Shown piece by piece: positions 32,467-64,000 of a stretch of DNA of 64,000 nt. The translations under genes and the position numbers were made by a program. Source of the DNA: Candidatus Latescibacterota bacterium (GTDB taxonomy: Bacteria; Latescibacterota; UBA2968); the NCBI GenBank assembly GCA_965204745.1, contig OZ242010.1:1856001-1920000 (forward strand), given 5' to 3'. The number at the start of each line of letters is the position of its first letter. Within the stretch, counting starts at the first letter, position 1. The notes below the pieces were generated by a model. It worked only from the letters and a program-made list of their open reading frames with translations. It was not told the DNA's origin and searched no databases.

Positions 32467-32525
32467 GTTGTCAGTAGTCAGTTGTCAGTTGTCAGTTGTC
32501 AGTCCCCACCCAACCGCCCAACCAC

Positions 32526-34273: not shown

Positions 34274-34314
34274 GCCAATTTCCTCCATGATATTTTGTTC
34301 ACTGCGCTTGTATC

Positions 34315-34343
34315 ATAATACATTCATCGCTTGCTGTTCACAA
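34315..34343 (-). promoter_or_regulatory. Possible sigma70 promoter for the sulfatase
   Basis: TTGTGA-17 bp-TATTAT on the minus strand. Confidence 0.4.
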
Positions 34344-34384
34344 GTTTCATTCCAATCGCCCCGTCCATTTCAGAGGCTTATGCC

Positions 34385-36823: not shown

Positions 36824-36852
36824 ATCCCCTATCCATTTCAGAGGCTTAGGCC

Positions 36853-39546
36853 ATGATTCTCATTCCATCGGAAGCAAGCGTTAGGCGGTCAGTGGTGGGC
36901 AAACGTCCCGTTTTGCTCGCATGCTTACCACTTCTCCTCGCGCTGTCAACGGTCTTTGTTTTTGGGCATGACCTGCGAAGTCACATAGAGCGTTCTCATA
37001 CTCACTCTATCCCTACGCATCATAGAATGGCGATAGCCGCCAATCTGTCTTTGGATCACAACTTCTTGCAGTTCTATCTCCAAACGCTCGAGGCAGATGG
37101 CACGGTTTCTTACGAACCGTATAATCGCTTTCCCATAGGTGGGCATGGGCTCATTGCGCTGGCTATCCTGCCCTTTGGCGATGACTTGGCAAGCCAACTC
37201 TATGCGGCCAGGACCCTGATGTTGCTGTGCTTTGTTGCCACAGCACTGCTGGCGTATCTCTGCCTTTGCCGGCTGACACATCATCCATGGATCGCCGCAA
37301 CCGCGACGCTCTTGGCGTTCTCATCGTTCTATTGCTTGTTCTATAGCGATATGGTGCATAATGAAGCGGGGATCGATCTGCTCGGGGTGATGCTGACCTT
37401 CCACGGGATGGTCATTTTCTTATGTGAGGGGCGTTTTCGGCAACTGCTGGTCAAGACGTGCATCGCGCTGTTTTTGGGCTGGCATGTCTATGCGTTGCTG
37501 TTGCCCTTTATCGCGCTCGGAGTGGTGCGCGAATGCCTCCACATGCGTTCAGTCCCTTTCAAGTTGAAGTGCTCCTGCCTGCTTCGCAGTCGCTATGTGT
37601 TGCTCGGCATTGTCGCATTGCTGTTTGGTTTGTCCTTATTGGCCTTTAATTTTGTCAATGAATACGTCGCGCTGAAAGGTGAGAAATCCCTGACGGAATT
37701 ACCGTCTTTCCGGTCTATGATATATCGCACGGGAATGGGTACCCCAGAAGATCGCCCTTCGCGCCCCTTGAAGTGGGATTCCTTCCTGCGAGGTCAATTC
37801 TCTCGCATTGGTGGGATGTCAACGCCGTATTTTATTTTTCCCTGCTTTGGCGTGCTTAGGCCACCGCAATCTTACGTGCCCTTGTCCGTTGGTGTGGGCA
37901 TTGGGGTGTCTATTGCGTGTCTGTTTGGGGTGTATTTCACGCGCCCGAGAATCCTTTGGGCGACCTTGATTCTGTTTGGCTTCTGTTGGACATTGCCCAT
38001 ACGCCATAACGTTAAAATGCTTGGCCATGAATTCGAGAGCGTGTTTTACATCGGCCTGCCCCTGGTCTTCTTCTCGCTTATTCTGCTGTGTCTATCCCGA
38101 CGCTTCAAGACCCCTCCCTTGATGGTCGGCTTTGCGGGTGTTGCGCTGATCATCTTTGTGCTTTCCAGTTTTCAGATGAGCCATTTCTATGCCCCCGATG
38201 CGACGCAACGCCAAAAGGTCGAGCTATCGGACATTGCAGCCATCCGCCGGTTAACGGCAGATGGCGACCTCATTTTTGTGCCGTTCTATGACCCACCTGA
38301 TTTAAATCGGACGTCGCGAGCTTACGAGAGGGCGAAGAGAAATTACTATTGGTCGCGGAGGATCATTCACACTCATTCTCTCCCCGCAGAGGGCTTCACG
38401 ATGATGTACGATCGTCTGGAGACAGACGCACTGCTCACGCCGAAAAACGAGCGGATATTTCTTTATGACTCCAAGAAATTGCTCAAAGCGTATCGGCAGG
38501 CAGTCGTGTCTGGCGAGCTCGTGGCGCGGTCAACCTTTGATGTGTATCGCGATGAGCGTGCGGTGCATTACGTCAAAAGTCCCTGTTCTGACGCGGACAT
38601 GCAGACCAAATTCTTCTTGCACATCTTTCCGACAGACGCGAGATCGATTCCCGTCCGCTGCAGGTGGCTTGGATATGACAACGAGGTCTTTAAGTTTCAG
38701 GATCGCGGTCTGCGGTTCGATGACAAATGCTTGGCGAGCATCGCGCTTCCGCACTACGATATCGCCCGGATTGAAACCGGGTCACTTTCCCGCGATTCCG
38801 ATCCAGAGCGGCTCGAGGTGTATCGGCAGGCATATCAGCGGGTCGTGTCTGGCGAGGTGGTGGCGCGGTCAACCTTCGATGTGTATCGCGATGAGCGCAC
38901 GTTGTATTACGTCAAAAGTCCCTGTTCTGATGCGGACGTGAAATTTCGATTCTTCTTGCACATCTTTCCCGCAGACGCGAAGGAGCTTCCCGTCCATCGC
39001 AGGCCGTATGGATATGACAACTACGACTTTGATTTTTCTTCGCAAGGTCAGCGGTTCGATGACAAATGCTTGGCGGGCATCGCGCTTCCGCATTACGATA
39101 TCGCCCGGATTGAAACCGGGCCACTTTCCCCCGGTCAAAGCAATGAACGCGCTGATGATCCCGGCAGGCTCGAGGTGTATCGGCAGGTTTATCAACGGGT
39201 CGTGTCTGGCGTGCCTGTGGCGCGGTCAATTTTCGATGTGTATCGCGATGAGCGCACATTGTATTACGTCAAAAGTCCCTGTTCTGATGCGGATGTGAAA
39301 TTACAATTCTTCTTACACCTCTTTCCGGCAGACGCGAAGGAGCTTCCCAGCCGTCGCTGGCAGTGGGGGTATAACAACGACAACTTTTCTTTTGTTGATC
39401 AAGGTCAGCGGTTCGATGACAAATGCTTGGCGAGCATCGCGCTTCCGCACTATGCCATCGCTCGTATTGAAACGGGTCAGTTCCATTGGAACAGCGGTGG
39501 CAAACACTGGGAGGCTAAAATTTTTTTCGACGAACAATCAAAGTAG
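36853..39546 (+). CDS. Array paralog 2 (3 C-terminal domains)
   Basis: 897 aa; three FDVYRD..PCS..FFLH..KCL..LPHY units. Confidence 0.75.
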   Translation: MILIPSEASVRRSVVGKRPVLLACLPLLLALSTVFVFGHDLRSHIERSHTHSIPTHHRMAIAANLSLDHNFLQFYLQTLEADGTVSYEPYNRFPIGGHGLIALAILPFGDDLASQLYAARTLMLLCFVATALLAYLCLCRLTHHPWIAATATLLAFSSFYCLFYSDMVHNEAGIDLLGVMLTFHGMVIFLCEGRFRQLLVKTCIALFLGWHVYALLLPFIALGVVRECLHMRSVPFKLKCSCLLRSRYVLLGIVALLFGLSLLAFNFVNEYVALKGEKSLTELPSFRSMIYRTGMGTPEDRPSRPLKWDSFLRGQFSRIGGMSTPYFIFPCFGVLRPPQSYVPLSVGVGIGVSIACLFGVYFTRPRILWATLILFGFCWTLPIRHNVKMLGHEFESVFYIGLPLVFFSLILLCLSRRFKTPPLMVGFAGVALIIFVLSSFQMSHFYAPDATQRQKVELSDIAAIRRLTADGDLIFVPFYDPPDLNRTSRAYERAKRNYYWSRRIIHTHSLPAEGFTMMYDRLETDALLTPKNERIFLYDSKKLLKAYRQAVVSGELVARSTFDVYRDERAVHYVKSPCSDADMQTKFFLHIFPTDARSIPVRCRWLGYDNEVFKFQDRGLRFDDKCLASIALPHYDIARIETGSLSRDSDPERLEVYRQAYQRVVSGEVVARSTFDVYRDERTLYYVKSPCSDADVKFRFFLHIFPADAKELPVHRRPYGYDNYDFDFSSQGQRFDDKCLAGIALPHYDIARIETGPLSPGQSNERADDPGRLEVYRQVYQRVVSGVPVARSIFDVYRDERTLYYVKSPCSDADVKLQFFLHLFPADAKELPSRRWQWGYNNDNFSFVDQGQRFDDKCLASIALPHYAIARIETGQFHWNSGGKHWEAKIFFDEQSK

Positions 39547-39575
39547 ATCCCCTATCCATTTGGGAGGCTTAGGCC

Positions 39576-42281
39576 ATGATTCTCATTTTATCGGAGGCAA
39601 GCGTTAGGCGGTCAGTGGCGGGCAAATGTCCCGTTCTGCTCGCTTGCTTACCGCTGCTCCTCGCGCTGTCAACGGTCTTTGTTTTTGGGCATGACCTGCG
39701 AAGTCACATAGAGCGTTCTCATAGTCACTCTGTCCTTACGCATCATAGAATGTCGATAGCCGCCAATCTGTCTTTGGATCACAACTTCTTGCAGTTCTAT
39801 CTCCAAACGCTCGGGGCAGATGGCACGGTTTTTTACGACTGGCTGTACAATCGCTTTCCCATAGGTGGGCATGGGCTCATTGCGCTGGCTATCCTGCCCT
39901 TTGGCGATGACTTGGCAAGCCAACTCTATGCGGCCAGGACCCTGATGTTGCTGTGCTTTGTTGCCACAGCACTGCTGGCGTATCTCTGCCTTTGTCGGCT
40001 GACACATCATCCATGGATCGCCGCAACCGCGACGCTCTTGGCGTTCTCATCGTTCTATTGCTTGTACTACGCCGATATGGTCATGAATGAAACGGGGATC
40101 GACCTGCTTGGGGTAATGTTGACCTTTCACGGGATGGTCATTTTCTTATGTGAGGGTCGCTTTCGGCAACTGCTGGTCAAGACGTGCATCGCGCTGTTTT
40201 TGGGCTGGCATGTCTATGCGTTGCTGTTGCCCTTTATCGCGCTCGGATTGGTGCGCGAATGCCTCCACATGCGTTCAGCTCCTTTCAAACTGAAGTGCTC
40301 CCGCCTGCTTCGCAGTCGCTATGTGTTGCTCGGCATTGTCGCATTGCTTTTGGGGTTGTCCTTGTTGACCTTTAATTTTGTCAATGAGTACGTCGCGCTG
40401 AAAGGTGAGAAATCCCTGACGGAATTACCGTCTTTCCGGTCTATGATATATCGCATGGGAATAGGTACCCCAGAAAATCGCCCTTCGCGCCCCTTGAAGT
40501 GGGATTTCTTCCTGCTAGATCAATTCTCTCGCATTGGTGGGATGTCAACGCCGTATTTCATCCTGCCCTCTCTCGGCGCACTTAGGCCCCCAGAGTCTTA
40601 CGTGCCTTTGTCCGTTGGCGTGGGCATTGGGGTGTTTGTTGCGTGTCTGTTTGGGGTGTATTTCACGCGCCCGCGAATCCTTTGGGCGACCTTGGTTCTA
40701 TTTGGCTTCTGTTGGGCATTGCCCATGCGCTATAACGTTGAAGCACCTAACCATAGTTTCGAGAGCGTGTTTTACATCGGCCTGCCTCTGGTCTTCTTCT
40801 CGCTTATTCTGCTGTGCCTATCCCGCCGCTTCAAGACCCCGCTTTTGATGGTCGGCTTTGCGGGTGCTGCACTGATCATCTTTGTGCTTTCCAGTTTTCA
40901 GATGAGCCGCTTCTATGCCCCCGATGCGACGCAACGCCAAAAGGTCGAGCTATCGGACGTTACAGCCATCCGCCGGTTAACGGCAGATGGCGACCTCATT
41001 TTTATACCGTTCTCTGACCCACCTGATTTAAATCGGACGTCGCGACCTTACGAGAAGGCGAAGCAAAATTACTATTGGTCGCGGAGGATCATTCACTTTC
41101 ATTCTCTCCCCGCAGAGGGCTTCACAGTGATGTACGATCGCCTGGAGACAGACGCACTGCTCACGCCGAAAAACGATCGGATATTCCTTTATGACTCCAA
41201 GAAATTGCTCAAAGCGTATCGGCAGGCATATCAGCGGGTCGTGTCTGGCGAGTTCGTGGCGCGGTCAACCTTTGATGTTTATCGCGACGAGCATGCGTTG
41301 CATTACGTCAAAAGTCCCTGTTCTGATGCGGACATGCAGACCAAATTCTTCTTGCACCTCTTTCCGACAGACGCGAGATCGATTCCCGTCCGCCGCAGGT
41401 GGCTTGGATATAACGACAAAATTTTTAATTTTCAGGATCGCGGTCTGCGGTTCGATGACAAATGCTTGGCGAGCATCGCGCTTCCGCACTACGACATCGC
41501 CCGGATTGAAACCGGGTCACTTTCCCGCGATTCCGATCCAGAGCGGCTCGAGGTGTATCGGCAGGCATATCAGCGGGTCGTGTCTGGCGCGCCTGTGGCG
41601 CGGTCAATTTTCGATGTGTATCGCGATGAGCACATGTTGTATTACGTCAAAAGTCCCTGTTCTGATGCGGACGTAAAATTACGATTCTTCTTGCACATCT
41701 TTCCCTCAGACGCGAAGGAGCTTCCCGTCCACCGCAGGCAGTATGGATATGACAACTACGACTTTGATTTTTCTTTTCAAGGTCAGCGGTTCGATGACAA
41801 ATGCTTGGCGGGCATCGCGCTTCCGCCTTACGATATCGCCCGGATTGAAACCGGATCACTTTCCCCCGGTCAAAGCAAAGAACGCGCTGATGATCCCGGC
41901 AGGCTCGAGGTGTATCGGCAGGTATATCAGCGGGTCGTATCTGGCGCGCCTGTGGCGCGGTCAACCTTCGATGTGTATCGCGATGATCGCACGTTGTATT
42001 ACGTCAAAAGTCCCTGTTCTGATGCGGATGTGAAATTACAATTCTTCTTGCACATCTTTCCTGCAGACGCGAAGGAGCTTCCCAGCCGTCGCTGGCAGTG
42101 GGGGTATAACAACGACAACTTTTCTTTTGTTGATCAAGGTCAGCGGTTCGATGACAAATGCTTGGCGAGCATCGCGCTTCCGCACTATGCCATCGCTCGT
42201 ATTGAAACGGGTCAGTTCCATTGGAACAGCGGTGGCAAACACTGGGAGGCTAAAATTTTTTTCGACGAACAATCAAAGTAG
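39576..42281 (+). CDS. Array paralog 3 (3 C-terminal domains)
   Basis: 901 aa; same scaffold. Confidence 0.75.
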   Translation: MILILSEASVRRSVAGKCPVLLACLPLLLALSTVFVFGHDLRSHIERSHSHSVLTHHRMSIAANLSLDHNFLQFYLQTLGADGTVFYDWLYNRFPIGGHGLIALAILPFGDDLASQLYAARTLMLLCFVATALLAYLCLCRLTHHPWIAATATLLAFSSFYCLYYADMVMNETGIDLLGVMLTFHGMVIFLCEGRFRQLLVKTCIALFLGWHVYALLLPFIALGLVRECLHMRSAPFKLKCSRLLRSRYVLLGIVALLLGLSLLTFNFVNEYVALKGEKSLTELPSFRSMIYRMGIGTPENRPSRPLKWDFFLLDQFSRIGGMSTPYFILPSLGALRPPESYVPLSVGVGIGVFVACLFGVYFTRPRILWATLVLFGFCWALPMRYNVEAPNHSFESVFYIGLPLVFFSLILLCLSRRFKTPLLMVGFAGAALIIFVLSSFQMSRFYAPDATQRQKVELSDVTAIRRLTADGDLIFIPFSDPPDLNRTSRPYEKAKQNYYWSRRIIHFHSLPAEGFTVMYDRLETDALLTPKNDRIFLYDSKKLLKAYRQAYQRVVSGEFVARSTFDVYRDEHALHYVKSPCSDADMQTKFFLHLFPTDARSIPVRRRWLGYNDKIFNFQDRGLRFDDKCLASIALPHYDIARIETGSLSRDSDPERLEVYRQAYQRVVSGAPVARSIFDVYRDEHMLYYVKSPCSDADVKLRFFLHIFPSDAKELPVHRRQYGYDNYDFDFSFQGQRFDDKCLAGIALPPYDIARIETGSLSPGQSKERADDPGRLEVYRQVYQRVVSGAPVARSTFDVYRDDRTLYYVKSPCSDADVKLQFFLHIFPADAKELPSRRWQWGYNNDNFSFVDQGQRFDDKCLASIALPHYAIARIETGQFHWNSGGKHWEAKIFFDEQSK

Positions 42282-42310
42282 ATCCCCTATCCATTTGGGA
42301 GGCTTAGGCC

Positions 42311-44662
42311 ATGGTTCTCATTCCATCAGAGGCAAGCGTTAGGCGGTCAGTGGCGGGCAAACGTCCCGTTCTGCTCGCCTGCTTATCGCTGCTCCTCGCG
42401 CTGTCAACGGTCTTTGTTTTTGGGCATGACCTGCGAAGTCACATAGAGCGTTCTCCTAGTCACTCTGTCCCTACGCATCATGCAATGTCGATAGCCGCCA
42501 ACCTTTCTCCAGATCACCACTTCTTGATGTTCTATCGCCAAACGCTCAATGCCGATGGCGCGGTTTCTTACATACCGTATAATCGTTTTCCCATAGGTGG
42601 GTATGTGCTCATTGCACTGGCTATCCTGCCCTTTGGCGATGACTTGGCAGCCCAACTCTATGCGGCCAGGACCCTGATGTTGCTGTGCTTTGCCGCAACC
42701 GCACTGCTGGCGTATCTCTGCCTTTGCCGGCTGACACATCATCCTTGGATCGCTGCAACCGCGACGCTCTTGGCGTTCTCATCGTTCTATTGCTTGTTCT
42801 ACAGCGATATGGTCTATAATGATACGGGGATCGACCTGCTTGGGGTAATGCTGACTTTTCACGGGATGGTCATTTTCTTATGTGAGGGTCGTTTTCGGCA
42901 ACTGCTGGTCAAGATGTGCATCGCGCTGTTGGTAGGCAGGCATGTCTATGCGTTGCTGTTGCCCTTTATCGCGCTCGGATTGGTGCGCGAATGCCTCCAC
43001 ATGCGTTCAGTCCCTTTCAGGCTGAAGTGCTCCCGCCTGCTTCGCAGTCGCTATGTGTTGCTCGGCATTGTCGCATTGCTTTTGGGGTTGTCCGTCTTGA
43101 CCTTTAATTTTGTCAATGAATACGTCGCGCTGAAAGGTGAAAAAGCACTGACGGAATTACCGTCTTTCCAGTCTATGATATATCGCACGGGAATAGACAC
43201 GGGAGCATATACAGATAGATATGACGAGCCAGCCCTGAAAGGGTGGGATTCCTTCCTGCTGGGTCAATTTTCTCGTATCGGTGGGATGTTCACGCCGTAT
43301 TTTATTTTTTTCTTTCTCGGCGTGCTTAGGCCCCCGCAGTCTTACGTGCCCTTGTCCGTTGGCGTGGGCATTGGGGGGTTTGTTGCGTGTCTGGTGGGGG
43401 TGTATTTCACGCGCCCGCGAATCCTTTGGACGCCCTTGATTCTGTTTGGCCTCTGTTGGGCATTGCCCATGCGCCATACCGTTAAAGTGTATGCCCATGA
43501 CTTCGAGAGCGTATTTTACATCGGCCTGCCTCTGGTCTTCTTCTCGCTTATTCTGCTGTGCCTATCCCGCCGCTTCAAGACCCCTCCTTTGACGGTCGGC
43601 TTTGCGGGTATTGCGCTGATCGTCTTTGTGCTTTCCAGTTTTCAGATGAGCCGCTTCTATGCCCCCGATGCGACGCAACGCCAAAAGGTCGCGCTGGCAG
43701 ACGCGACAGCCATCCGCCGATTAACAGCAACTGGCGACCTCATTTTTAAGCCGTTCCCGTTCTATGACTCACCTGATTTAAATCCGCCGACGCTACATTA
43801 CTATTTTGCGCGAAGGATCATTCACTCTCATGCTCTCACCGCAGAGGGCTTCACAGTGATGAATGATCGCCTGGAGACAGACGCGCTGCTCACGCCGAAA
43901 AACGAGCGGATATTCCTCTATGACTCTAAGAAATTGCTCAAAGCGTATCGGCAGGCAGTCGTGTCTGGTGAATTGGTGGCGCGGTCAACCTTCGATGTGT
44001 ATCGCGACGAGCATGTGTTGCATTACGTCAAAAGTCCCTGTTCTGATGCGGACATGCAGACCAAATTCTTCTTACACCTCTTTCCGACAGACGAGAGATC
44101 TATTCCCGTCCACCGCAGGTGGTTTGGATATGATACCGATGTCCTTAAGTTTTGGCACTACGGTTTGCGCTTCGACGATAAATGCTTGGCGAGCGTCGCG
44201 CTTCCGCATTACGATATCGCCCGGATTGAAACCGGGCCACTTTCCCCCGGCCAAAGCGATGAACGCGCTGATGATCCCGACAGGCTCGAGGTGTATCGGC
44301 AGGTATATCAACGGGTCGTGTCTGGCGAATTGGTGGCGCGGTCAACCTTCGATGTGTATCGCGATGAGCGCACGTTGTATTACGTCAAAAGTCCCTGTTC
44401 TAATGAGGATGTGAAAACCAAATTCTTCTTGCATATCTTTCCGACCAATAGGCAGGAACTGGACTCCCGTCGTTGGCAGTGGGGGTATGACAACGACGGC
44501 TTTGATTTTTCTGAGCAAGGTCTGCGGTTCGATGACAAATGCTTGGCGAGCGTCGCGCTTCCGCACTACGACATCGCCCGGATTGAAACGGGTCAGTTCC
44601 ACTTTGACAGTAGAGGCAAACAATGGAAGGCTAAAATTTTTCTCGACGAACAGTCAAAGTAG
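42311..44662 (+). CDS. Array paralog 4 (2 C-terminal domains)
   Basis: 783 aa; same scaffold. Confidence 0.75.
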   Translation: MVLIPSEASVRRSVAGKRPVLLACLSLLLALSTVFVFGHDLRSHIERSPSHSVPTHHAMSIAANLSPDHHFLMFYRQTLNADGAVSYIPYNRFPIGGYVLIALAILPFGDDLAAQLYAARTLMLLCFAATALLAYLCLCRLTHHPWIAATATLLAFSSFYCLFYSDMVYNDTGIDLLGVMLTFHGMVIFLCEGRFRQLLVKMCIALLVGRHVYALLLPFIALGLVRECLHMRSVPFRLKCSRLLRSRYVLLGIVALLLGLSVLTFNFVNEYVALKGEKALTELPSFQSMIYRTGIDTGAYTDRYDEPALKGWDSFLLGQFSRIGGMFTPYFIFFFLGVLRPPQSYVPLSVGVGIGGFVACLVGVYFTRPRILWTPLILFGLCWALPMRHTVKVYAHDFESVFYIGLPLVFFSLILLCLSRRFKTPPLTVGFAGIALIVFVLSSFQMSRFYAPDATQRQKVALADATAIRRLTATGDLIFKPFPFYDSPDLNPPTLHYYFARRIIHSHALTAEGFTVMNDRLETDALLTPKNERIFLYDSKKLLKAYRQAVVSGELVARSTFDVYRDEHVLHYVKSPCSDADMQTKFFLHLFPTDERSIPVHRRWFGYDTDVLKFWHYGLRFDDKCLASVALPHYDIARIETGPLSPGQSDERADDPDRLEVYRQVYQRVVSGELVARSTFDVYRDERTLYYVKSPCSNEDVKTKFFLHIFPTNRQELDSRRWQWGYDNDGFDFSEQGLRFDDKCLASVALPHYDIARIETGQFHFDSRGKQWKAKIFLDEQSK

Positions 44663-44691
44663 ATCCCCTATCCATTTCAGAGGCTTAGGCC

Positions 44692-47031: not shown

Positions 47032-47060
47032 ATCCCCTATCCATTTCAGAGGCTTAGGCC

Positions 47061-49739: not shown

Positions 49740-49768
49740 ATCCCCTATCCATTTCAGAGGCTTAGGCC

Positions 49769-52072: not shown

Positions 52073-52137
52073 AGTAGGTGATACATCTGAGCGTTACGCA
52101 CAACTGCTCTTTCAAATCAACTTAGGAGGCTTAGGCC

Positions 52138-54468: not shown

Positions 54469-54497
54469 ATACCCTATCCATTTCAGAGACTTAGGCC

Positions 54498-56888
54498 ATG
54501 ATTCTCATTCCATCAGAGGCAAGCGTTAGGCGGTCAGTGGCGGGCAAACGTCCCGTCCTGCTCGCTTGCTTACCGCTTCTCCTCGCGCTGTCAACGGTCT
54601 TTGTTTTTGGGCATGACCTGCGAAGTCACATAGCGCGTTCTAAGAGTCACTCTTTCCATACGCATCATAAAATGGCGATATCAGCCAATCTGTCTTTGGA
54701 TCACCACTTTCTGATGTTCTATCGCCAAACGCTCAATGCCGATGGCGCGGTTTCTTACGTACCGAATAATCGCTTTCCCATAGGTGGGCATGTGCTCATC
54801 GCGCTGGCTATCCTGCCCTTTGGCGATGACTTGGCAACCCAACTCTATGCGGCAAGGACCCTGATGTTGCTGTGCTTTGCCGCCACAGCACTGCTGGCCT
54901 ATCTCTGCCTTTGCCGGCTGACACATCATCCCTGGATCGCCACAACCGCGACGCTCTTGGCGTTCTCATCGTTCTATTGCTTGTTCTACAGCGATATGGT
55001 GTTCAATGAAGCGGGGATCGATCTGCTCGGGGTGATGCTGACCTTTCACGGCATGGTCATTTTCATTTATGAGGGTCGTTTTCGGCAACTGCTGGTCAAG
55101 ACGTGCATCGCGCTGTTTTTGGGCTGGCATGTCTATGCGTTGCTGTTGCCCTTTATCGCGCTCGGAATGGTGCGGGAATGGTGCCGTGCGCGTTCAGTCC
55201 CTTTCAAGTTGAAATGCTCCCGCCTGCTTCGCAGTCGCTATGTGTTGCTCGGCATTGTCGCGTTGCTCGTTGGGTTGTCCTTATTGACCTTTAATTTTTT
55301 CATTGAATACGTCGCGCTGAAGGGTGAGAAATCCCTGACGGAATTACCGTCTTTCCAGTCTATGATCTATCGCACGGGAATAGGTACCCCAGAAAATCGC
55401 TCCTCGCACCCCTTGAAGTGGGATTCCTTCCTGCGAGGTCAATGCTCTCGTATCGGTGGGATGTTCACGCCGTATTTCATCCTGCCCTCCCTCAATGCAC
55501 TTCTCCCGGAGTTTTATGTGCCCTTGTCCGTTGGCGTGGGCATTGGGGGGGTTATTTTGTGTCTGTCTGGGGTGTATTTCACGCGCCCAAGAATCCTTTG
55601 GGCGACCTTGATTCTGGTTGGCTTCTGTTGGGCATTGCCCATGCGCCATAATGTTAAAGAGCTTTCCCATAGCTTCGAGAGCGTGTTTTACATCGGCCTG
55701 CCTCTGGTCTTCTTCGCACTTGTTCTGCTGTGCCTATCCCGTCGCTTCAAGACCCCTCTTTTGATGGTCGGCTTTGCGGGTGCTGCCCTGATCGTCTTTG
55801 TGCTTTCCAGTCTTCAGATGAGCCATTTCTATGACCCCGATGCGACGCAACGCCAAAAGGTCGAGCTATCGGACGCGACAGCCATCCGCCGGTTAACGGC
55901 AGAGGACGACCTCATTTTTATCTCGCCCCATCCACATTTAAATTGGCCGGACTTTGGGGGCCTACGTTACGGGACAAGAATAGATTACTATTTGGCGCAG
56001 AGGATCATTCACTCTCATTCTCTCACCGCAGAGGGCTTCACGGTGAGGTATGATCGCCCTCTCACCGCAGAGGGCTTCACGGTGATAAATGATCGCCTGG
56101 AGACAGACGCGCTGCTCACGCCGAAAAACGAGCGGATATTCCTCTATGACTCCAAGAAATTGCTCAAAGCGTATCGGCAGGCAGTCGTGTCTGGCGAGTT
56201 AGTGGCGCGATCAACCTTTGATGTGTATCGCGACGAGCGTGCGTTGCATTACGTCAAAACGCCCTGTTCTGATGAGGACTTGAAGACCAAATTCTTCTTG
56301 CACATCTTTCCGACCAACAGGAAGGAACTGGACTCTCATCGCTTGCTGTGGGGGTATAACAACTACTCCTTTTCTTTTGATAAGCAAGGCCTGCGGTTCG
56401 ATGACAAATGCTTGGTGAGCATCGCGCTTCCGCATTACGATATCGCCCGTGTTGAAACAGGTCCACTTTCCTCCGACCAAAGCAAAGAACGCGCTAATGA
56501 CCCCGACAGGCTCGAGGTGTATCGGCAAGCATATCAACGGGTCATGTCTGGCGAGTTAGTGACGCGATCAACTTTCGACGTATATCGCGTATCGCGGGCA
56601 TTGTATTACGTCAAAAGTCCCTGTTCTGATGCGGACGTAAAGACCAAATTCTTCTTGCACATCTTTCCGACCAACAGGAAGGAACTGGACTCCTTGCGCT
56701 GGCAGTGGGGGTATAACAACTACGACTTTTTTTTTGATAAGCAAGGCCTGCGGTTCGATGACAAATGCTTGGCGAGCATCGCGCTTCCGCACTATGCCAT
56801 CGCCCGGATTGAAACGGGTCAGTTCTACTTTGATAGTAGAGGCAAACAATGGAAGGCAAAAATTTTTCTCAACGAGCAGGCAAAGTAG
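54498..56888 (+). CDS. Array paralog 9 (2 domains, 39-bp internal duplication)
   Basis: 796 aa; LTAEGFTV occurs twice. Confidence 0.75.
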   Translation: MILIPSEASVRRSVAGKRPVLLACLPLLLALSTVFVFGHDLRSHIARSKSHSFHTHHKMAISANLSLDHHFLMFYRQTLNADGAVSYVPNNRFPIGGHVLIALAILPFGDDLATQLYAARTLMLLCFAATALLAYLCLCRLTHHPWIATTATLLAFSSFYCLFYSDMVFNEAGIDLLGVMLTFHGMVIFIYEGRFRQLLVKTCIALFLGWHVYALLLPFIALGMVREWCRARSVPFKLKCSRLLRSRYVLLGIVALLVGLSLLTFNFFIEYVALKGEKSLTELPSFQSMIYRTGIGTPENRSSHPLKWDSFLRGQCSRIGGMFTPYFILPSLNALLPEFYVPLSVGVGIGGVILCLSGVYFTRPRILWATLILVGFCWALPMRHNVKELSHSFESVFYIGLPLVFFALVLLCLSRRFKTPLLMVGFAGAALIVFVLSSLQMSHFYDPDATQRQKVELSDATAIRRLTAEDDLIFISPHPHLNWPDFGGLRYGTRIDYYLAQRIIHSHSLTAEGFTVRYDRPLTAEGFTVINDRLETDALLTPKNERIFLYDSKKLLKAYRQAVVSGELVARSTFDVYRDERALHYVKTPCSDEDLKTKFFLHIFPTNRKELDSHRLLWGYNNYSFSFDKQGLRFDDKCLVSIALPHYDIARVETGPLSSDQSKERANDPDRLEVYRQAYQRVMSGELVTRSTFDVYRVSRALYYVKSPCSDADVKTKFFLHIFPTNRKELDSLRWQWGYNNYDFFFDKQGLRFDDKCLASIALPHYAIARIETGQFYFDSRGKQWKAKIFLNEQAK

Positions 56889-56917
56889 ATACCATATCGT
56901 TTTAGGAGGCTTAGGCC

Positions 56918-59209
56918 ATGGTTCTAACAGATGCCAGCGTTAGGCGGTCAGTCGCGGGCAAACGTCCCGTTCTGCTCGCTTGCTTACCGTTGCTCCTCGC
57001 GCTGTCAACGGTCTTTATTTTTTGCCACGACCTGCGAAGCCACTGTGTACGTTCTTATAGTCACTCTGTCCTTACGCATCATAAAATGGCGATAGCCGCC
57101 AATCTGTCTTTGGATCACCACTTCCTGATGTTCTATCGCCAAACGCTCAATGCCGATGGCGCGGTTTCTTACGAACTGTATAATCGCTTTCCCATAGGTG
57201 GGTATGTGCTCATCGCGCTGGCTATCCTGCCCTTTGGCGATGACTTGGCAACCCAACTCTATGCGGCAAGGACCCTGATGTTGCTGTGCTTTGTTGCAAC
57301 AGCACTGCTGGCCTATCTCTGCCTTTGCCGGCTGACACATCATCCCTGGATCGCCGCAACCGCGACGCTCTTGGCGTTCTCATCATTCTATTGCTTGTTC
57401 TACAGCGATATGGTGCATAATGAAACGGGGATCGACCTGCTCGGGGTGATGCTGACTTTTCACGGGATGGTCATTTTCTTATGTGAGGGTCGTTTTCGGC
57501 AACTGCTGGTCAAGATGTGCATCGCGCTGTTTTTGGGCTGGCATGTCTATGCGTTGCTGTTGCCCTTTATCGCGCTCGGATTGGTGCGAGAATGCCGTCG
57601 TGCGCGTTCAGTCCCTTTCAAGTTGAAGTGCTCCCGCCTACTTCGCAGTCGCTATGTGTTGCTCGGCATTGTCGCGTTGCTCGTTGGGTTGTCCTTGTTG
57701 ACCTTTAATTTTGTCAATGAATACGTCGCGCTGAAAGGTGAGAAATCCCTGACGGAATTACCGTCTTTCCAGTCTATGATGTATCGCACGGGAATAGATA
57801 CCCCATGGTATAGACTACAGAACCCCTTGAGGTGGGATTCCTTTCTGCTGGGTCAATTCTCTCGCATTGGTGGGATGTTCACGCCGTATTTTATTTTCCC
57901 CTACCTTAGCGCACTTCCCCCGGAGTTTTATGTGCCCTTGTCTGTTGGCGCGGGCATTGGGGTGTTTGTTTTTTATCTATTTGGGGTATATTTCACGCGC
58001 CCGAGAATCCTTTGGGCGACCTTGGGTCTGGTTGGCTTCTGTTGGGCATTGCCCATGCGCCATAATGTTAAAGAGCTTTCCCATAGCTTCGAGAGCGTGT
58101 TTTACATCGGCCTGCCTCTGGTCTTCTTCTCGCTTCTTCTGCTGTGCCTATCCCGCCGCTTCAAGGCCCCTCCTTTAATGGTCGGCTTTGCGGGTGTTGC
58201 CCTGATCGTCTTTGTGCTTTCCAGTTTTCAGATGAGCCACTTCTATGACCTCGATGCGACGCAACGCCAAAAGGTCGAACTGTCCGACGTTACAGCCATC
58301 CGCCGGTTAACGGCAGAGGACGACCTCATTTTTCTACCGTTCTATAGCTCATCTGATTTAAATCCGCCGAAGCTACATTACTATTTGGCGCGGAGGATCA
58401 TTCACGCTCATTCTCTCACCGCAGAGGGCTTCACGCTGATGGATGATCGCCTGGAGACAGACGCGTTGCTCACGCCGAAAAACGAGCGGATATTTCTTTA
58501 TGACTCCAAGAAATTGCTCAAAGCGTATCGGCAGGCAGTCGTGTCTGGCGAGTTGGTGGCGCGGTCAACCTTTGATGTGTATCGGGATGAGCGCACGTTG
58601 CATTACGTCAAAAGTCCCTGTTCTGACGCGGACATGAAGACCAAATTCTTCTTGTACATCTTTCCGACAGATGAGAGATCTATTCCCTTTGGATATGACA
58701 ACGAAGTCTTTAAGTTTCAGGATCGCGGTTTGCGCTTCGACGATAAATGCTTGGCGAGCGTCGCGCTTCCGAACTACGATATCGCCCGGATTGAAACCGG
58801 GCCACTTTCCCCGGCCCAAAGCAAAGAACGCGGAAGGCGCGAGGTGTATCGGCAATATCAACGGGTCGTGTCTGGCGAGTTGGTGGCGCGGTCAACCTTC
58901 GATGTGTATCGCGACGAGCGTGTGTTGCATTACGTCAAAACGCCCTGTTTTGATGAAGACATAAAAACCAAATTCTTCTTGCACATCTTTCCGACCGACA
59001 GAAAGGAACTGCCCTCCCATCGCTGGCTGTGGGGGTATGACAACGACGACTTTTCTTGGCGTAAGCGAGGCCTGCGGTTCGATGACAAATGCTTGGCGAG
59101 CATCGCGCTTCCACACTACGACATCGCCCGGATTAAAACGGGTCAGTTCTACGATGATGGGGTTAGAGTGTGGGAGGTAGAAATTTCTCTCAACGAGCAG
59201 TCAAAGTAG
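56918..59209 (+). CDS. Array paralog 10 (2 C-terminal domains)
   Basis: 763 aa; MVLTDASV start as in copy 1. Confidence 0.75.
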   Translation: MVLTDASVRRSVAGKRPVLLACLPLLLALSTVFIFCHDLRSHCVRSYSHSVLTHHKMAIAANLSLDHHFLMFYRQTLNADGAVSYELYNRFPIGGYVLIALAILPFGDDLATQLYAARTLMLLCFVATALLAYLCLCRLTHHPWIAATATLLAFSSFYCLFYSDMVHNETGIDLLGVMLTFHGMVIFLCEGRFRQLLVKMCIALFLGWHVYALLLPFIALGLVRECRRARSVPFKLKCSRLLRSRYVLLGIVALLVGLSLLTFNFVNEYVALKGEKSLTELPSFQSMMYRTGIDTPWYRLQNPLRWDSFLLGQFSRIGGMFTPYFIFPYLSALPPEFYVPLSVGAGIGVFVFYLFGVYFTRPRILWATLGLVGFCWALPMRHNVKELSHSFESVFYIGLPLVFFSLLLLCLSRRFKAPPLMVGFAGVALIVFVLSSFQMSHFYDLDATQRQKVELSDVTAIRRLTAEDDLIFLPFYSSSDLNPPKLHYYLARRIIHAHSLTAEGFTLMDDRLETDALLTPKNERIFLYDSKKLLKAYRQAVVSGELVARSTFDVYRDERTLHYVKSPCSDADMKTKFFLYIFPTDERSIPFGYDNEVFKFQDRGLRFDDKCLASVALPNYDIARIETGPLSPAQSKERGRREVYRQYQRVVSGELVARSTFDVYRDERVLHYVKTPCFDEDIKTKFFLHIFPTDRKELPSHRWLWGYDNDDFSWRKRGLRFDDKCLASIALPHYDIARIKTGQFYDDGVRVWEVEISLNEQSK

Positions 59210-59238
59210 ATCCCCTATCCATTTGGGAGGCTTAGGCC

Positions 59239-61560
59239 ATGATTCTCATTCCATCAGAGGCAAGCGTTAGGCGGTCAGTCGCGGGAAAATGTCCCGTTCT
59301 GCTCGCATGCTTACCGCTACTCCTCGCGCTGTCAACGGTCTTTGTTTTTGGGCATGACCTGCGAAGTCACATAGAGCGTTCTCCTGGTTACTCTAACCTT
59401 ACGCATCATAAAATGTCGATAGCCGCCAACCTTTCTCCAGATCACAACTTTCTGATGTTCTATCGCCAAACGCTCAATGCCGATGGCGCGGTTTATTACG
59501 AAATGTATAATCGCCATCCCATAGGTGAGTTTGTGCTCATTGCGCTGGCTATCCTGCCCTTTGGCGATGACTTGGCAAGCCAACTCTATGCGGCAAGGAC
59601 CCTGATGTTGCTGTGCTTTGTTGCAACAGCACTGCTGGCGTATCTCTGCCTTTGCCGGCTAATACATCATCCCTGGATCGCCGCAACCGCGACGCTCTTG
59701 GCGTTCTCATCGTTCCATTGCTTGTTCTACAGCGATATGGTGTTCAATGATACGTGGATCGACCTGCTTGGGGTAATGCTGACTTTTCACGGGATGATCA
59801 TTTTCTTCTGTGAGGGTCGCTTTCGGCAACTGCTGGTCAAGACGTGCATCGCGCTGTTTTTGGGCTGGCATGTCTATGCGCTGCTGTTGTCCTTTATCGC
59901 GCTCGGAGTGGTGCGGGAATGCCGCCGTGCGCGTTCAGTCCCTTTCAAGTTGAAGTGCTCCCGCCTGCTTCGCAGTCGCTATGTGTTGCTCGGCATTGTC
60001 GCATTGCTGTTTGGGTTGTCCTTGTTGACCTTTAATTTCGCTAATGAATACGTCGCGCTGAAAGGTGAGAAATCCCTGACGGAATTACCGTCTTTCCAGT
60101 CTATGACGTATCGCACGGGAATAGACCCAGGAAATAGACCAGGTCGCCCCTTGAGGTGGAATTCCTTTCTGCGAGATCAATTCTCTCGCATTGGTGGGGT
60201 GTCAACGCCGTATTTTATTTTTTTCTATCTTAGCGCACTTCCCCCGCAGTCTTACGTGCCCTTGTCCGTTGGTGTGGGCATTGGGGTGTCTATTGCGTGT
60301 CTGGTGGGGGTGTATTTCACGCGCCCGAGAATCCTTTGGGCGCCCTTGATTCTGCTTGGCTTCTGTTGGGCATTGCCCATGCGCTATCAAGTTAAAACGC
60401 CTGGTCATGCTTATGAGAGCATGTTTTACATCGGCCTGCCACTGGTCTTCTTCTCGCTTATTCTGCTGTGCCTATCCCGACGCTTCAATGCCCCGCTTTT
60501 GATGGTCGGCTTTGCGGGTATTGCCCTGATCGTCTTTGTGCTTTCCAGTTTTCAGATGAGCCATTTCTATGCCCCCGATGCGACGCAACGCCAAAAGGCT
60601 GAGTTGGCAGACGCGACAGCCATCCGCCGGTTAACGGCAGAGGACGACCTCATTTTCTTTACCCCTGGTTTCAATCTGGCGAAGCTACGTTACTATTTGG
60701 CGCGGAGGATCATTCACTCTCATTCTCTCACCGCAGAGGGCTTCACGCTGATGGATGATCGCCTGGAGACAGACGCGTTGCTCACGCCGAAAAACGAGCG
60801 GATATTCCTTTATGACTCCAAGAAATTGCTCAAAGCGTATCGGCAGGCAGGCGTGTCTGGCGAGGTGGTGGCGCGGTCAACCTTCGATGTATATCGCGAT
60901 GAGCACACGTTGTATTACGTCAAAAGTCCCTGTTCTGACGCGGACATGCAGACCGAATTCTTCTTGCACATCTTTCCGACAGACACGCAGGAACTGCTCT
61001 CTCATCGCTGGCAGTGGGGGTATGACAACGACGACTTTTCTTTTCATACGCGAGGCCTGCGGTTCGATGACAAATGCTTGGCGAGCATCGCGCTTCCACA
61101 CTACGACATCGCCCGGATTGAAACCGGGCCACTTTCCCCCGGCCAAAGCAATGAACGCACTGATGATCCCGGGATGCTCAAAGCGCATCGGCAGGTATAT
61201 CAACGGGTCGTGTCTGGCGCGCCTGTGGCGCGGTCAACTTTCGATGTGTATCGCGATGATCGCACGTTGTATTACGTCAAAAGTCCCTGTTCTGATGCGG
61301 ACGTGAAATTACGATTCTTCTTACACCTCTTTCCCGCAGACGCGAAGGAGCTTCTCAGCGGCTTTCACCGCTGGCAGTATGGATATAACAACGACGACTT
61401 TAATTTTTCTGATCAGGGCCTGCGGTTCGATGACAAATGCTTGGCGAGCGTCGCGCTTCCGCACTACGACATCGCTCGTATTGAAACGGGTCAGTTCCAC
61501 TGGAACAGCGGTAGCAAACAATGGAAGGCTAAAATTTTTCTTGACGAACAGTCAAAGTAG
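59239..61560 (+). CDS. Array paralog 11 (2 C-terminal domains)
   Basis: 773 aa; same scaffold. Confidence 0.75.
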   Translation: MILIPSEASVRRSVAGKCPVLLACLPLLLALSTVFVFGHDLRSHIERSPGYSNLTHHKMSIAANLSPDHNFLMFYRQTLNADGAVYYEMYNRHPIGEFVLIALAILPFGDDLASQLYAARTLMLLCFVATALLAYLCLCRLIHHPWIAATATLLAFSSFHCLFYSDMVFNDTWIDLLGVMLTFHGMIIFFCEGRFRQLLVKTCIALFLGWHVYALLLSFIALGVVRECRRARSVPFKLKCSRLLRSRYVLLGIVALLFGLSLLTFNFANEYVALKGEKSLTELPSFQSMTYRTGIDPGNRPGRPLRWNSFLRDQFSRIGGVSTPYFIFFYLSALPPQSYVPLSVGVGIGVSIACLVGVYFTRPRILWAPLILLGFCWALPMRYQVKTPGHAYESMFYIGLPLVFFSLILLCLSRRFNAPLLMVGFAGIALIVFVLSSFQMSHFYAPDATQRQKAELADATAIRRLTAEDDLIFFTPGFNLAKLRYYLARRIIHSHSLTAEGFTLMDDRLETDALLTPKNERIFLYDSKKLLKAYRQAGVSGEVVARSTFDVYRDEHTLYYVKSPCSDADMQTEFFLHIFPTDTQELLSHRWQWGYDNDDFSFHTRGLRFDDKCLASIALPHYDIARIETGPLSPGQSNERTDDPGMLKAHRQVYQRVVSGAPVARSTFDVYRDDRTLYYVKSPCSDADVKLRFFLHLFPADAKELLSGFHRWQYGYNNDDFNFSDQGLRFDDKCLASVALPHYDIARIETGQFHWNSGSKQWKAKIFLDEQSK

Positions 61561-61589
61561 ATACCTTATCCATTTCAGAGGCTTAGGCC

Positions 61590-63929
61590 ATGATTCTCAT
61601 TCCATCGGATGCCGGGGTTAGGCGGTCAGTGGCGGGAAAACGTCCCGTTCTGCTCGCTTGCTTGCCGCTTCTCCTCGCGCTTTCAACGGTCTTTGTTTTT
61701 GGCCATGACCTGCGAAGTCACCTTGTGCGTTCTGTGGGTCACTCTGACTTTACGTATCATAAAATGGCGATAGCCGCCAACCTTTCTCCAGATCACCACT
61801 TTCTGATGTTCTATCGCCAAACGCTCAATGCCGATGGCGCGGTTTCTTACGTACCGAATAATCGCTTTCCCATAGGTGGGCATGTGCTCATCGCGCTGGC
61901 TATCCTGCCCTTTGGCGATGACTTGGCAACCCAACTCTATGCGGCAAGGACCCTGATGTTGCTGTGCTTTGCCGCCACAGCACTGCTGGCGTATCTCTGC
62001 CTTTGCCGGCTGACACATCATCCCTGGATCGCCGCAACCGCGACGCTCTTGGCGTTCTCATCGTTCTATTGCTTGTTCTTCAGCGATATGGTGTTCAATG
62101 AAACGGGGATCGATCTGCTCGGCGTGATGCTGACTTTTCACGGGATGGTCATTTTCATTTTTGAGGGTCGCTTTCGGCAACTGCTGGTCAAGATGTGCGT
62201 CGCGCTGTTTTTGGGCTGGCATGTCTATGCGTTGCTGTTGCCCTTTATCGCGCTCGGAGTGGTGCGGGAATGTTGCCGTGCGCGTTCAGTCCCTTTCAAG
62301 TTGAAATGCTCCCGCCTGCTTCGCAGTCGCTATGTGTTGCTCGGCATTGTCGCGTTGCTCGTTGGGTTGTCCTTATTGACCTTTAATTTTGTCAATGAAT
62401 ACGTCGCGCTGAAAGGTGAAAAATCACTGACGGAATTACCGTCTTTCCGGTCTATGATATATCGCACGGGAATGGGTACCCCAGAAAATCGCCCCTTGAA
62501 CTCCTTGAAGTGGGATTTCTTCCTGATAGAACAATTCTTTCGTATTGATTTGATGTGCATGCCGCAATTCATCCTGTCCTGCCTCGATGCACTTCCCCGG
62601 AGTTATTATGTGCCCTTGTCTGTTGGCGCGGGCATTGGGGTGTCTATTGCGTGTCTGTTTGGGGTGTATTTCACGCGCCCGAGAATCCTTTGGGCGACCT
62701 TGGTTCTGTTCGGCTTCTGTTGGGCATTGCCCATGCGCCATAACGTTAAAGTGTATGCCCATGACTTCGAGAGCGTGTTTTACATCGGTCTGCCCCTGGT
62801 CTTCTTCTCGCTAATTCTGCTGTGCCTATCCCGCCGCTTCAAGACCGCGCCTTTGATGGTCGGCTTTGCGGGTATTGCGCTGATCGTCTTTGTGCTTTCC
62901 AGTTTTCAGATGAGCCATTTCTATGCCCTCGATGCGACGCAACGCCAAAAGGTCGAGCTATCGGACATTGTAGCCATCCGCCGGTTAACGACAGAGAACG
63001 ACCTCATTTTTATTTTTTTTAACTCGTCCAACCTCTACATCGAGACAAATCGGATAAGATACTATCTGAACCGGAGAATTATTCACGCTCATGCTCTCAC
63101 CGCAGAGGGCTTCACAGTGATGTTTGATCGCCTGGAGACAGACGCGTTGCTCACGCCGAAAAACGAGCGGATATTCCTTTATGACTCCAAGAAATTGCTC
63201 GAGGAGTATCGGCAGGTATATCAACGGGTCGTGTCTGGCGAGTTGGTGGCGCGCTCGACCTTCGATGTGTATCGCGATGAGCGTGCATTGCATTACGTCA
63301 AAAGTCCCTGTTCTGATGCGGACATGCAGACCAAATTCTTCTTCCACATCTTTCCGGCAGACGAGAGATCTATTCCCTTCCACCGCAGGTGGTTTGGATA
63401 TGATACCGCCGTCTTTGCGTTTTGGAAACACGGTTTGCAATTCGACGATAAATGCTTGGCGAGTATCGCGCTTCCACACTACGATATCGCCCGGATTGAA
63501 ACCGGGCCACTTTCCCCCGGCCAAAGCAATGAACGCGCTTATGATCCCGACAGGCTCGAGGTGTATCGGCAGGCATATCGACAGGTCGTGTCTGGCGAGT
63601 TGGTGGCGCGGTCAACCTTTGATGTGTATCGCGACGAGCGTGTGTTGCATTACGTCAAAACGCCCTGTTCTGACGCGGACGTGAAGACCAGATTCTTCTT
63701 GCACATCTTCCCGACTAACAGGAAGGAACCATCCTCCCTGTACTATCGGTGGAGGTATGAAAACATCGACTTTGATTTTTCTTCGTACGGCCTGCGGTTC
63801 GATGGCAAATGCTTGGCGAGCATCGCGCTTCCGCACTACGACATCGCCCGGATTAAAACGGGTCAGTTCTACGACGATGGGGTTAGAGTGTGGGAGGCAG
63901 AAATTTTTCTCAACGAGCAGTCAAAGTAG
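61590..63929 (+). CDS. Array paralog 12 (2 C-terminal domains)
   Basis: 779 aa; same scaffold; downstream sequence does not restart a unit within the window. Confidence 0.75.
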   Translation: MILIPSDAGVRRSVAGKRPVLLACLPLLLALSTVFVFGHDLRSHLVRSVGHSDFTYHKMAIAANLSPDHHFLMFYRQTLNADGAVSYVPNNRFPIGGHVLIALAILPFGDDLATQLYAARTLMLLCFAATALLAYLCLCRLTHHPWIAATATLLAFSSFYCLFFSDMVFNETGIDLLGVMLTFHGMVIFIFEGRFRQLLVKMCVALFLGWHVYALLLPFIALGVVRECCRARSVPFKLKCSRLLRSRYVLLGIVALLVGLSLLTFNFVNEYVALKGEKSLTELPSFRSMIYRTGMGTPENRPLNSLKWDFFLIEQFFRIDLMCMPQFILSCLDALPRSYYVPLSVGAGIGVSIACLFGVYFTRPRILWATLVLFGFCWALPMRHNVKVYAHDFESVFYIGLPLVFFSLILLCLSRRFKTAPLMVGFAGIALIVFVLSSFQMSHFYALDATQRQKVELSDIVAIRRLTTENDLIFIFFNSSNLYIETNRIRYYLNRRIIHAHALTAEGFTVMFDRLETDALLTPKNERIFLYDSKKLLEEYRQVYQRVVSGELVARSTFDVYRDERALHYVKSPCSDADMQTKFFFHIFPADERSIPFHRRWFGYDTAVFAFWKHGLQFDDKCLASIALPHYDIARIETGPLSPGQSNERAYDPDRLEVYRQAYRQVVSGELVARSTFDVYRDERVLHYVKTPCSDADVKTRFFLHIFPTNRKEPSSLYYRWRYENIDFDFSSYGLRFDGKCLASIALPHYDIARIKTGQFYDDGVRVWEAEIFLNEQSK

Positions 63930-64000
63930 GTGATACATCTAAGCGTTACGCCACAACCGCTCTTTCAAATCAACGAGTATCTCATCAAATCTCGCATCTT

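Follow-up and report, generated by a model that had tools for sequence, protein, structure and literature searches.

The 64,000-nucleotide stretch of Candidatus Latescibacterota bacterium DNA analysed here (assembly GCA_965204745.1, contig OZ242010.1, positions 1,856,001 to 1,920,000; hereafter the window) holds an array of at least 12 tandem, intact paralogs of an unannotated membrane protein family. Very probably, short-tract gene conversion has shuffled sequence cassettes among these genes, whose products are predicted to have a GT-C fold, and unequal or illegitimate recombination has changed their copy number. The copies, c1 to c12, lie co-oriented on the + strand between 34385 and 63929 and were taken from a listing of open reading frames (ORFs) with translations, where they measure 763-901 amino acids (aa). 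Between the end of c12 and the end of the window there are 71 nucleotides (nt), and further copies may follow. A conserved spacer of 29 nt, in which a GGAGG/AGAGG motif stands 8 nt ahead of the ATG, makes up 10 of the 11 junctions, the sole exception being the 65-nt junction of c7 with c8. Pairwise identity among the copies is 0.856-0.937 in nucleotides (2223 ungapped columns) and 76-91% in amino acids. Aligned as proteins, the copies have a scaffold that is strongly conserved and is broken by about 14 short hypervariable patches (numbered with the prefix P), and a C-terminal repeat of about 115 aa is present in three units in c2, c3 and c6 and in two units in the other copies.

A mosaic distribution of variable segments had been proposed in a first-pass annotation of this DNA. 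Its copy numbering fits the 12 tandem + strand ORFs, although the span it gave, 37990 to 63929, starts too late, as the array begins with c1. Each of the nine shared motifs that it listed was found in every copy it had given for that motif and nowhere else in the array: KMLGH in c2 and c6, KVYAHD in c4 and c12, KELSHS in c9 and c10, IDTPW.RLQNP in c8 and c10, FNLAKLRYY and KELLSG.HRWQY in c5 and c11, SRGKQWK in c4 and c9, FYDDGVRVWE in c10 and c12, and RYYLNRR in c7, c8 and c12. At 81 of the 85 motif positions with identical amino acids the codon is identical as well, compared to the 36.1 that the codon usage of these genes predicts, which shows that the motifs are the same DNA, identical by descent, and not the product of convergence. 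The annotation had also singled out c4, c10 and c12 as copies that change partner along their length; these changes are real but not special, since all 12 copies switch, each changing its nearest partner 26-40 times (120-nt windows, 40-nt step). Typing of 14 variable patches by nucleotide identity likewise gave partners that differ from patch to patch. c10, for example, has affinities to c8 at P6 and P7, to c9 at P9, to c12 at the C-terminal tail and to c1 at the N-terminus, where the sequence MVLTD is common to c1 and c10 only. Identity between copies declines weakly with the array distance that separates them (rho -0.30, Mantel P=0.014).

The first-pass annotation had further held that no single duplication tree explains the copies, and had named congruent segment trees as one outcome that would contradict it. 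We divided the alignment into six segments with equal numbers of informative sites. The six trees differ, are locally well supported and are mutually incongruent, with all 30 cross-comparisons by the approximately unbiased (AU) test giving rejection (p<=0.012); the full-length tree was rejected by five of the six segments. The pairwise homoplasy index (PHI) and a GENECONV-style run test were positive as well. Across 451 informative sites PHI gave z of about -22, -20 and -15 at w=10, 20 and 50 (0/2000 permutations each). In three of four controls the signal was retained: when the hypervariable patches were removed (z=-8.4, 0/2000), when the sites were thinned to at least 9 nt apart (z=-4.1, 0/2000), and when the alignment was split into an N-terminal part (z=-6.6) and a C-terminal part (z=-17.1); in the fourth, silent sites, it was significant at short range only. 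In the run test, identical tracts of 64-198 nt were Bonferroni-significant in 8 of the 66 pairs and nominally significant in 42; five tract entries are placed in the table below.

The fraction of incompatible site pairs rises with the distance between sites, from 0.22 at 1-2 nt through 0.44 (20-29 nt) and 0.58 (50-99 nt) to about 0.63 at 200 nt or more, and linkage extends over no more than roughly 50 nt. The best single maximum-likelihood (ML) tree is star-like, with 16% of its length internal and weak deep support, a shape that favours a history of duplication along one tree without exchange, the shared motifs having arisen by convergent or parallel substitution at fast-evolving, selected loop sites. 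As a null for such a history we simulated 30 alignments on the ML tree (GTR+F+I+G4). Homoplasy alone produced a high incompatibility of 0.465 (0.43-0.51), but in all 30 simulations it was flat with distance (0.477 near, 0.465 far), whereas the observed values of 0.376 near and 0.627 far are unlike those of any simulation. Sites of intermediate frequency numbered 219 in the data compared to 97 (82-119) in the simulations. Collectively, tree incongruence, PHI, the single-tree null and the tracts support the earlier proposal that gene conversion or unequal crossover shuffles loop cassettes.

Comparison with other assemblies gave a similar picture. Ten of the 12 copies have counterparts with 92-99.8% protein identity on contigs of 18.5 kb to 5.28 Mb; the contig to which the window's own proteins map measures 5.48 Mb. 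Counterparts differ from each other in clusters, and several of the differences are whole-cassette swaps to the variant of another paralog: the counterpart of c10 carries the DPPDFNLAKL cassette of c5, that of c8 carries IDTPWYRLQ of c10, and that of c6 carries the linker of c8/c11. Over the ten pairs we counted 252 strain differences, 224 in paralog-variable columns and 28 in invariant columns; 185 of these substitutions (73%) are the state seen in the same column of another window paralog, against 23.2 expected for random residues. The close strains have variant arrays and extra family members that are at most 86% identical to any window copy. The exchange looks recent from these sequences.

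The nearest genome locus found, L001, belongs to a Candidatus Latescibacterota metagenome-assembled genome (MAG; OZ251458.1) at 73% identity. It is orthologous, having the same SDR, TIM-barrel and sulfatase neighbours, yet it contains only four copies. These are mosaic too: the three possible 2+2 splits are clumped, and adjacent pairs with the same split number 77 compared to 44.5 expected (0/10000). The 12 copies of the window form one clade relative to the copies of the L001 species. Among 109 distinct cassettes, three, all of them 5-mers, are shared with that species and 83 recur in close-strain proteins, which points to a cassette repertoire that is lineage-specific and young; long-lived trans-species cassettes were rejected on the same count. 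In other arrays the amino-acid identity within an array is 50-84%, a partial figure in that the motif filter gave at least two full-length copies in four of nine loci.

Changes in gene number and in repeat number have left traces of their own. The 3' end of c7 aligns to that of c12 save for a 24-nt deletion and a 2-nt insertion, and its last residues are altered. Because of this alignment, and because the c7/c8 spacer holds about 44 nt of the downstream flank of c12, c7 must once have been a terminal gene of the array, and a block was later joined on after it, bringing part of the flank along. A tree of the repeat units mixes positions: in four copies (c8, c9, c5 and c11) the first repeat falls among the last repeats, the two repeats of c8 are sisters, and three genes carry an extra unit. 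This mixing, together with the extra units, shows that exchange and unequal recombination also act between repeats. Unequal or illegitimate recombination is separately supported by the change in copy number (four in L001), by the c7/c8 scar and by the presence of two or three repeats. Repeat number varies widely across the family, beyond two versus three, since six long members of 1264-1851 aa (P0130, P0133, P0154, P0156, P0214 and P0237) match the C-terminal repeat module in 4-7 stretches.

The family has no sequence-based annotation. Pfam gave no family above the cut-off for three copies (best E 0.022-0.054, to unrelated or marginal models), NCBIfam gave none for two copies, and the precomputed Pfam field is empty for 118 of 120 homologs listed. 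There are nevertheless at least 1315 homologs among 8000 scored candidates, and an exhaustive profile search returned, at E<=1e-3, 2904 clusters (50% identity), of which 1197 reach E<=1e-30. A weak PDB sequence-profile match to an RND transporter over 79 residues was read as membrane-helix noise and rejected. An AlphaFold2 (AF2) model of c5, built on 68 family members, has a mean predicted local distance difference test score (pLDDT) of 84.5 and a predicted template modelling score (pTM) of 0.79. In a Foldseek search of the PDB, 26 of 27 matches with E<=1e-3 were GT-C enzymes or complexes holding one (probability 1.00; template modelling (TM) score by target 0.25-0.49), including ALG12, ALG9, STT3/OST, ArnT, AglB, PglB, EmbC, AftA and DPY19. 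The modelled N-terminal multi-pass membrane domain thus shows the GT-C glycosyltransferase fold. An Atlas feature search points to RgtA/B/C/D-like and PMT_2 clusters, which we take as a lead only. The C-terminal region (pLDDT 80.2) is modelled as 2-3 beta-sandwich repeats, each with a family-invariant cysteine pair. No specific family emerged for this domain, its matches being generic tandem FN3/Ig-like beta-sandwiches with TM-scores of 0.15-0.30.

From the model helices and the positive-inside rule the protein would have 11 membrane passes, with the N-terminus inside and the C-terminal domain outside; all the loops predicted to lie inside contain arginine or lysine, apart from the HH turn of two residues at 143-144. 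In this topology P2 and P3 (first outside loop), P4, P6, P7 (long loop 274-342), P9 and P10-P14 are predicted to face outward, P5 to be cytoplasmic and P8 to lie within a membrane helix. Most patches would thus occupy extracytoplasmic loops or C-terminal repeat loops. Residue D82 (c5 numbering; consensus D-x-D-G) is conserved in at least 90% of the 68 family members and is placed between the first membrane helix and the next, in the first predicted outside loop, and is a candidate catalytic residue. GDD 109-111 is invariant in the 12 copies and is not conserved family-wide. The modelled protein resembles the GT-C superfamily (ArnT, PglB/STT3/AglB, ALG9/ALG12, PMT, DPY19, EmbA/B/C, AftA/D) in the fold of its membrane domain, and would further resemble it in a long extracytoplasmic loop, in a C-terminal extracytoplasmic domain and possibly in a nearly invariant acidic residue. 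It differs in matching no curated GT-C sequence family (PMT, PMT_2, STT3, ArnT-type etc.) and in that neither a polyprenyl-phosphate sugar synthase (GT2) nor a GtrA-like flippase was found next to the family among 62 neighbour ORFs of 12 related loci.

We propose that the identical scaffold stretches serve as the homology for recombination between misaligned copies. Gene conversion would then copy tens to about 200 nt from paralog to paralog, giving new combinations of loop cassettes, and unequal or illegitimate recombination would change gene number and internal-repeat number separately. Relaxed or diversifying selection on the loops may keep the variants apart, the scaffold remaining constrained. 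The internal mosaics appear to fit gene conversion better than single unequal crossovers, because the short tracts have different partners on both sides. We infer non-reciprocal transfer, with the host recombination machinery as its agent, and also a selective agent acting on the loops.

Several points weigh against this model. At silent sites in amino-acid-invariant codons (n=90) PHI is null at w=20 (z=0.06) and significant at short range only (5/5000 at w=1, 8/5000 at w=5 and 91/5000 at w=10), so most of the signal rides on or beside selected sites. Within single tracts the silent sites are few (2-13 each) and match by construction, and their matching was rejected as evidence, being both too sparse and circular. 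The minimum number of recombination events (Rmin) was also rejected: 136 were observed and 104 (77-119) arose in simulations without recombination, and per informative site Rmin is higher simulated (0.53) than observed (0.43). For the scaffold the ratio of nonsynonymous to synonymous divergence (dN/dS) is 0.33; for the membrane-domain patches it reaches 1.05, dN exceeding dS in 41 of 66 pairs, but the patches were defined by amino-acid variability, which makes the raised dN partly circular, and the alignment is least certain there. dS itself is twofold higher in the patches (0.39) than on the scaffold (0.19). The strain comparison was made at the protein level with cluster representatives, a single genome gives no direction or non-reciprocity of transfer, and the array is known here from assembled sequence alone. 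An enzymatic function is suggested by the fold, no curated family having matched and no adjacent donor-synthase or flippase gene having been seen in the 12 loci.

Among other explanations, the one that survives best is that the mosaics come mainly from allelic or misaligned homologous recombination with the DNA of other strains after uptake, and not from conversion within the chromosome. The variant arrays and the extra members (<=86% identical) of close strains, the cassette size of the strain differences and the presence of the family in several phyla, which shows mobility, are all consistent with it. We nevertheless consider it improbable, given that 73% of the strain differences are states already held by the array's other paralogs, that the copies form one clade against the next species, with which they share three 5-mer cassettes of 109, and that identity declines with distance within the array. 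The two routes are in any case compatible, each being recombination among paralogs.

Assembly artefact is a further alternative: tandem units of 2.3-2.7 kb that are about 88% identical could be mis-joined, or strain haplotypes merged within a metagenome bin, into chimeras that exist in no cell. The related records are MAGs and the window may be one too, the copies were judged from the assembly, and very short linkage blocks could be mimicked by mixed-strain mis-assembly. We regard this as very unlikely. With 10 of the 12 copies recovered at 92-99.8% in other assemblies, the same mosaics have been assembled more than once; the window's own proteins map to the 5.48-Mb contig; none of the 12 ORFs is broken and their 29-nt spacers are regular; and the independent four-copy array of the 73%-identical species is similarly mosaic.

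We give even less credence to a dedicated diversifier, such as a diversity-generating retroelement or a site-specific recombinase shufflon, acting on the loops in place of general homologous recombination. The short, discrete and clustered patches, their twofold higher dS and the transposase genes upstream might be taken to suggest one. However, a scan of 19 upstream ORFs (of 81 ORFs of at least 150 aa listed) gave no domain of a reverse transcriptase or invertase, every copy has the same direct orientation, the patches, which are numerous and include indels, are common to copies as identical DNA, and the conserved scaffold is also affected by exchange. For the retroelement in particular, the scan of those 19 ORFs covered the reverse transcriptase domain, and a template repeat was not searched for. 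Descent along a single tree is the least credible alternative and is already largely refuted: the star-like tree, the high simulated incompatibility and Rmin and the null silent-site PHI at w=20 are set against the shared codons, the distance dependence seen in none of the 30 simulations, the excess of intermediate-frequency sites, the 30 AU rejections and a PHI signal that stays outside the patches and after thinning.

Segmental gene conversion among paralogs, which we favour, is familiar from antigenic variation in Neisseria pilE/pilS, Borrelia vlsE, Anaplasma msp2 and Treponema tprK. The array is like these systems in its conserved framework, its short hypervariable regions, its exchange of short segments between nearby paralogs and its variable parts, mostly predicted to face outward. 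In antigenic-variation systems a single gene is expressed and the donor cassettes are silent and truncated; in the array every one of the 12 copies is full-length, starts with ATG and comes with a ribosome-binding-like spacer, and the protein looks enzyme-like, not an adhesin or antigen. Small tandem sets of GT-C paralogs such as embCAB are known. In the literature searched, in so far as its text was available, we found no description of a 12-copy GT-C array with hypervariable loops, nor of diversification of GT-C-type membrane enzymes by gene conversion.

A closer parallel is the lpl lipoprotein-like cluster of Staphylococcus aureus. In the paper describing it (Tsuru & Kobayashi 2008, PMC2568036), conserved stretches inside each ORF are the recombination sites, the phylogenies of the variable regions are incongruent and strains are rearranged. 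The array shares with lpl co-oriented tandem paralogs whose variable regions are incongruent within the ORF. It differs in that lpl, according to the same paper (PMC2568036), encodes lipoproteins with two variable regions around one central conserved region, whereas here large GT-C-fold membrane proteins have about 14 patches with linkage lost at about 50 nt. Among eukaryotes, the major histocompatibility complex (MHC), plant nucleotide-binding leucine-rich repeat (NLR) clusters of the RPP8 type and Plasmodium surface antigen families are described as evolving by birth-and-death and interlocus gene conversion under diversifying selection. They are like the array in tandem paralogs, mosaic divergence and a dN/dS raised in ligand-facing patches of a conserved scaffold, and unlike it in that this is a bacterial operon-like array without meiosis. 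Diversification of tandem paralogs by gene conversion is thus known for surface antigens and lipoproteins, and is seen here on an unannotated family.

A bolder reading, which we offer tentatively and think rather unlikely as a whole, is that the array is a combinatorial generator. Conversion would reshuffle substrate-facing loops among a dozen or more co-expressed GT-C-fold envelope glycosyltransferases of a family not recognised before, giving a fast-turning, lineage-specific repertoire of surface glycosylation, with phage or host recognition as the driver and with transfer of the family among uncultured bacteria of at least five phyla. If true, the array would do with glycans what antigenic variation does with proteins. 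Should specificity for substrate or acceptor reside in the loops, nature would here have run an experiment on how cassette exchange diversifies the specificity of enzymes, and the array would point to fast evolution of envelope glycosylation in uncultured lineages. On the practical side, a gene tree of such a family loses its meaning once it spans more than about 50-200 nt.

Table. Positions in the window of the array copies, their spacers and flanks, and the identical tracts and repeat discussed in the text
Feature	Position	Strand	Remarks
Upstream intergenic region of c1	34289..34384	+	probable promoter region of the array
c1	34385..36823	+	812 aa from ATG 34385; ORF listing extends to TTG 34331
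GAGGCAA x8.7, perfect heptanucleotide tandem repeat	35064..35124	+	in c1; encodes RGKRQEA x3, predicted cytoplasmic loop
Spacer (example)	36824..36852	+	29 nt, GGAGG/AGAGG ribosome-binding-like motif 8 nt before ATG
c2	36853..39546	+	897 aa, 3 C-terminal repeats
3' tract, c2 side	39328..39542	+	also c3 42063-42277 and c6 49521-49719; 0/2000 each pair
c3	39576..42281	+	901 aa, 3 C-terminal repeats
c4	42311..44662	+	783 aa; partners along length include c5, c10, c7, c12, c6, c9, c3
c5	44692..47031	+	779 aa; copy used for structure model
c6	47061..49739	+	892 aa, 3 C-terminal repeats
c7	49769..52072	+	767 aa; altered C-terminus
c7/c8 spacer	52073..52137	+	65 nt, about 44 nt homologous to flank 3' of c12
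c8	52138..54468	+	776 aa; its first repeat sister to own second repeat
c9	54498..56888	+	796 aa; internal 13-aa duplication (LTAEGFTV...)
198-nt tract, c9 side	54699..54896	+	= c12 61791-61988; all 53 polymorphic sites identical, 0/2000
c10	56918..59209	+	763 aa; mosaic of c8, c9, c12 and c1 affinities
75-nt tract, c10 side	57899..57973	+	= c8 53122-53196; 39 polymorphic sites, 0/2000
97-nt tract, c10 side	58030..58126	+	= c9 55616-55712; 33 polymorphic sites, 0/2000
92-nt tract, c10 side	58377..58468	+	= c6 48535-48626; 32 polymorphic sites, 0/2000
c11	59239..61560	+	773 aa
c12	61590..63929	+	779 aa, last copy in window
Flank 3' of c12	63930..64000	+	first ~44 nt recur in c7/c8 spacer

The start of c1 is most likely the ATG at 34385, because the sequence preceding it resembles an inter-copy spacer. 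Part of the upstream intergenic region is conserved with the region that precedes the first copy of L001, and a weak sigma-70-like match (9/12) lies at 34287-34316, such matches not being enriched across the array. Inside the array 16 sigma-70-like promoters were found compared to 16.1 expected, and a terminator scan gave 17 compared to 26.5. This lack of promoter and terminator enrichment, together with the tight spacers, suggests that the array is one transcription unit and that its genes would be co-transcribed.

The c1 counterpart from another assembly is 7 aa shorter, which equals three units of the GAGGCAA repeat. Any change in unit number other than by a multiple of three would put c1 out of frame, and slipped-strand mispairing at the repeat could in this way switch the array's first gene on and off. 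At corresponding places, 10 of the 12 copies contain a second + strand open frame of 150-186 aa, which overlaps the C-terminal repeat region in a different frame (36069-36575, 38465-38941, 41191-41676, 43863-44414, 46286-46777, 48601-49053, 51303-51854, 53717-54220, 60755-61306 and 63124-63684), and is possibly a by-product of composition.

Upstream of the array are ordinary chromosomal genes and three transposase genes. The gene neighbourhood was rejected as a functional clue, with no conserved partner gene among the 62 ORFs of the 12 loci. A sulfatase gene adjoins the family in three loci only, on the - strand in each: the window (32861-34288), L001 (6219-7676) and L019 of Bryobacterales (5924-7384). 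This adjacency hints, if weakly, at a connection with sulfated glycans. Compared to L001 the window has about 2.9 kb extra between the TIM-barrel and sulfatase genes, holding an insertion sequence (IS) copy. This copy, at about 30031-31019, is the second of two with a DDE transposase that are 96.4% identical over 991 nt; the other is at about 20474-21464. The two are inverted and about 9.5 kb apart, with an IS110-family transposase gene between them (23730-24812). Perfect heptamer tandem repeats of TTGTCAG and its rotations flank the transposase genes at 21459-21489, 29971-30035, 31017-31290 and 32467-32503, reaching 39 copies at 31017-31290. A 310-aa ORF (31017-31949) that starts inside the 39-copy repeat is without a Pfam match and may be spurious. 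Another perfect repeat, AAAGGCGT, occurs eight times in tandem at 23633-23696. A type I restriction-modification S subunit gene is located at 13380-14735 (-), and no methylase or restriction subunit was seen among the large neighbouring ORFs scanned.

Beyond the window, tandem sets of 2-6 same-strand copies are present in 15 of 38 related loci, from Dehalococcoidia, Latescibacterota, Nitrospirales, Vicinamibacterales, Bryobacterales, Gammaproteobacteria and Rhodothermales. A single 3.48-Mb contig of a Dehalococcoidia MAG (OZ251484.1; within L002-L040) accounts for 24 of the 47 loci found, scattered along it and some of them in tandem sets of 2-4, an expansion of the family that is very large for the genome size.

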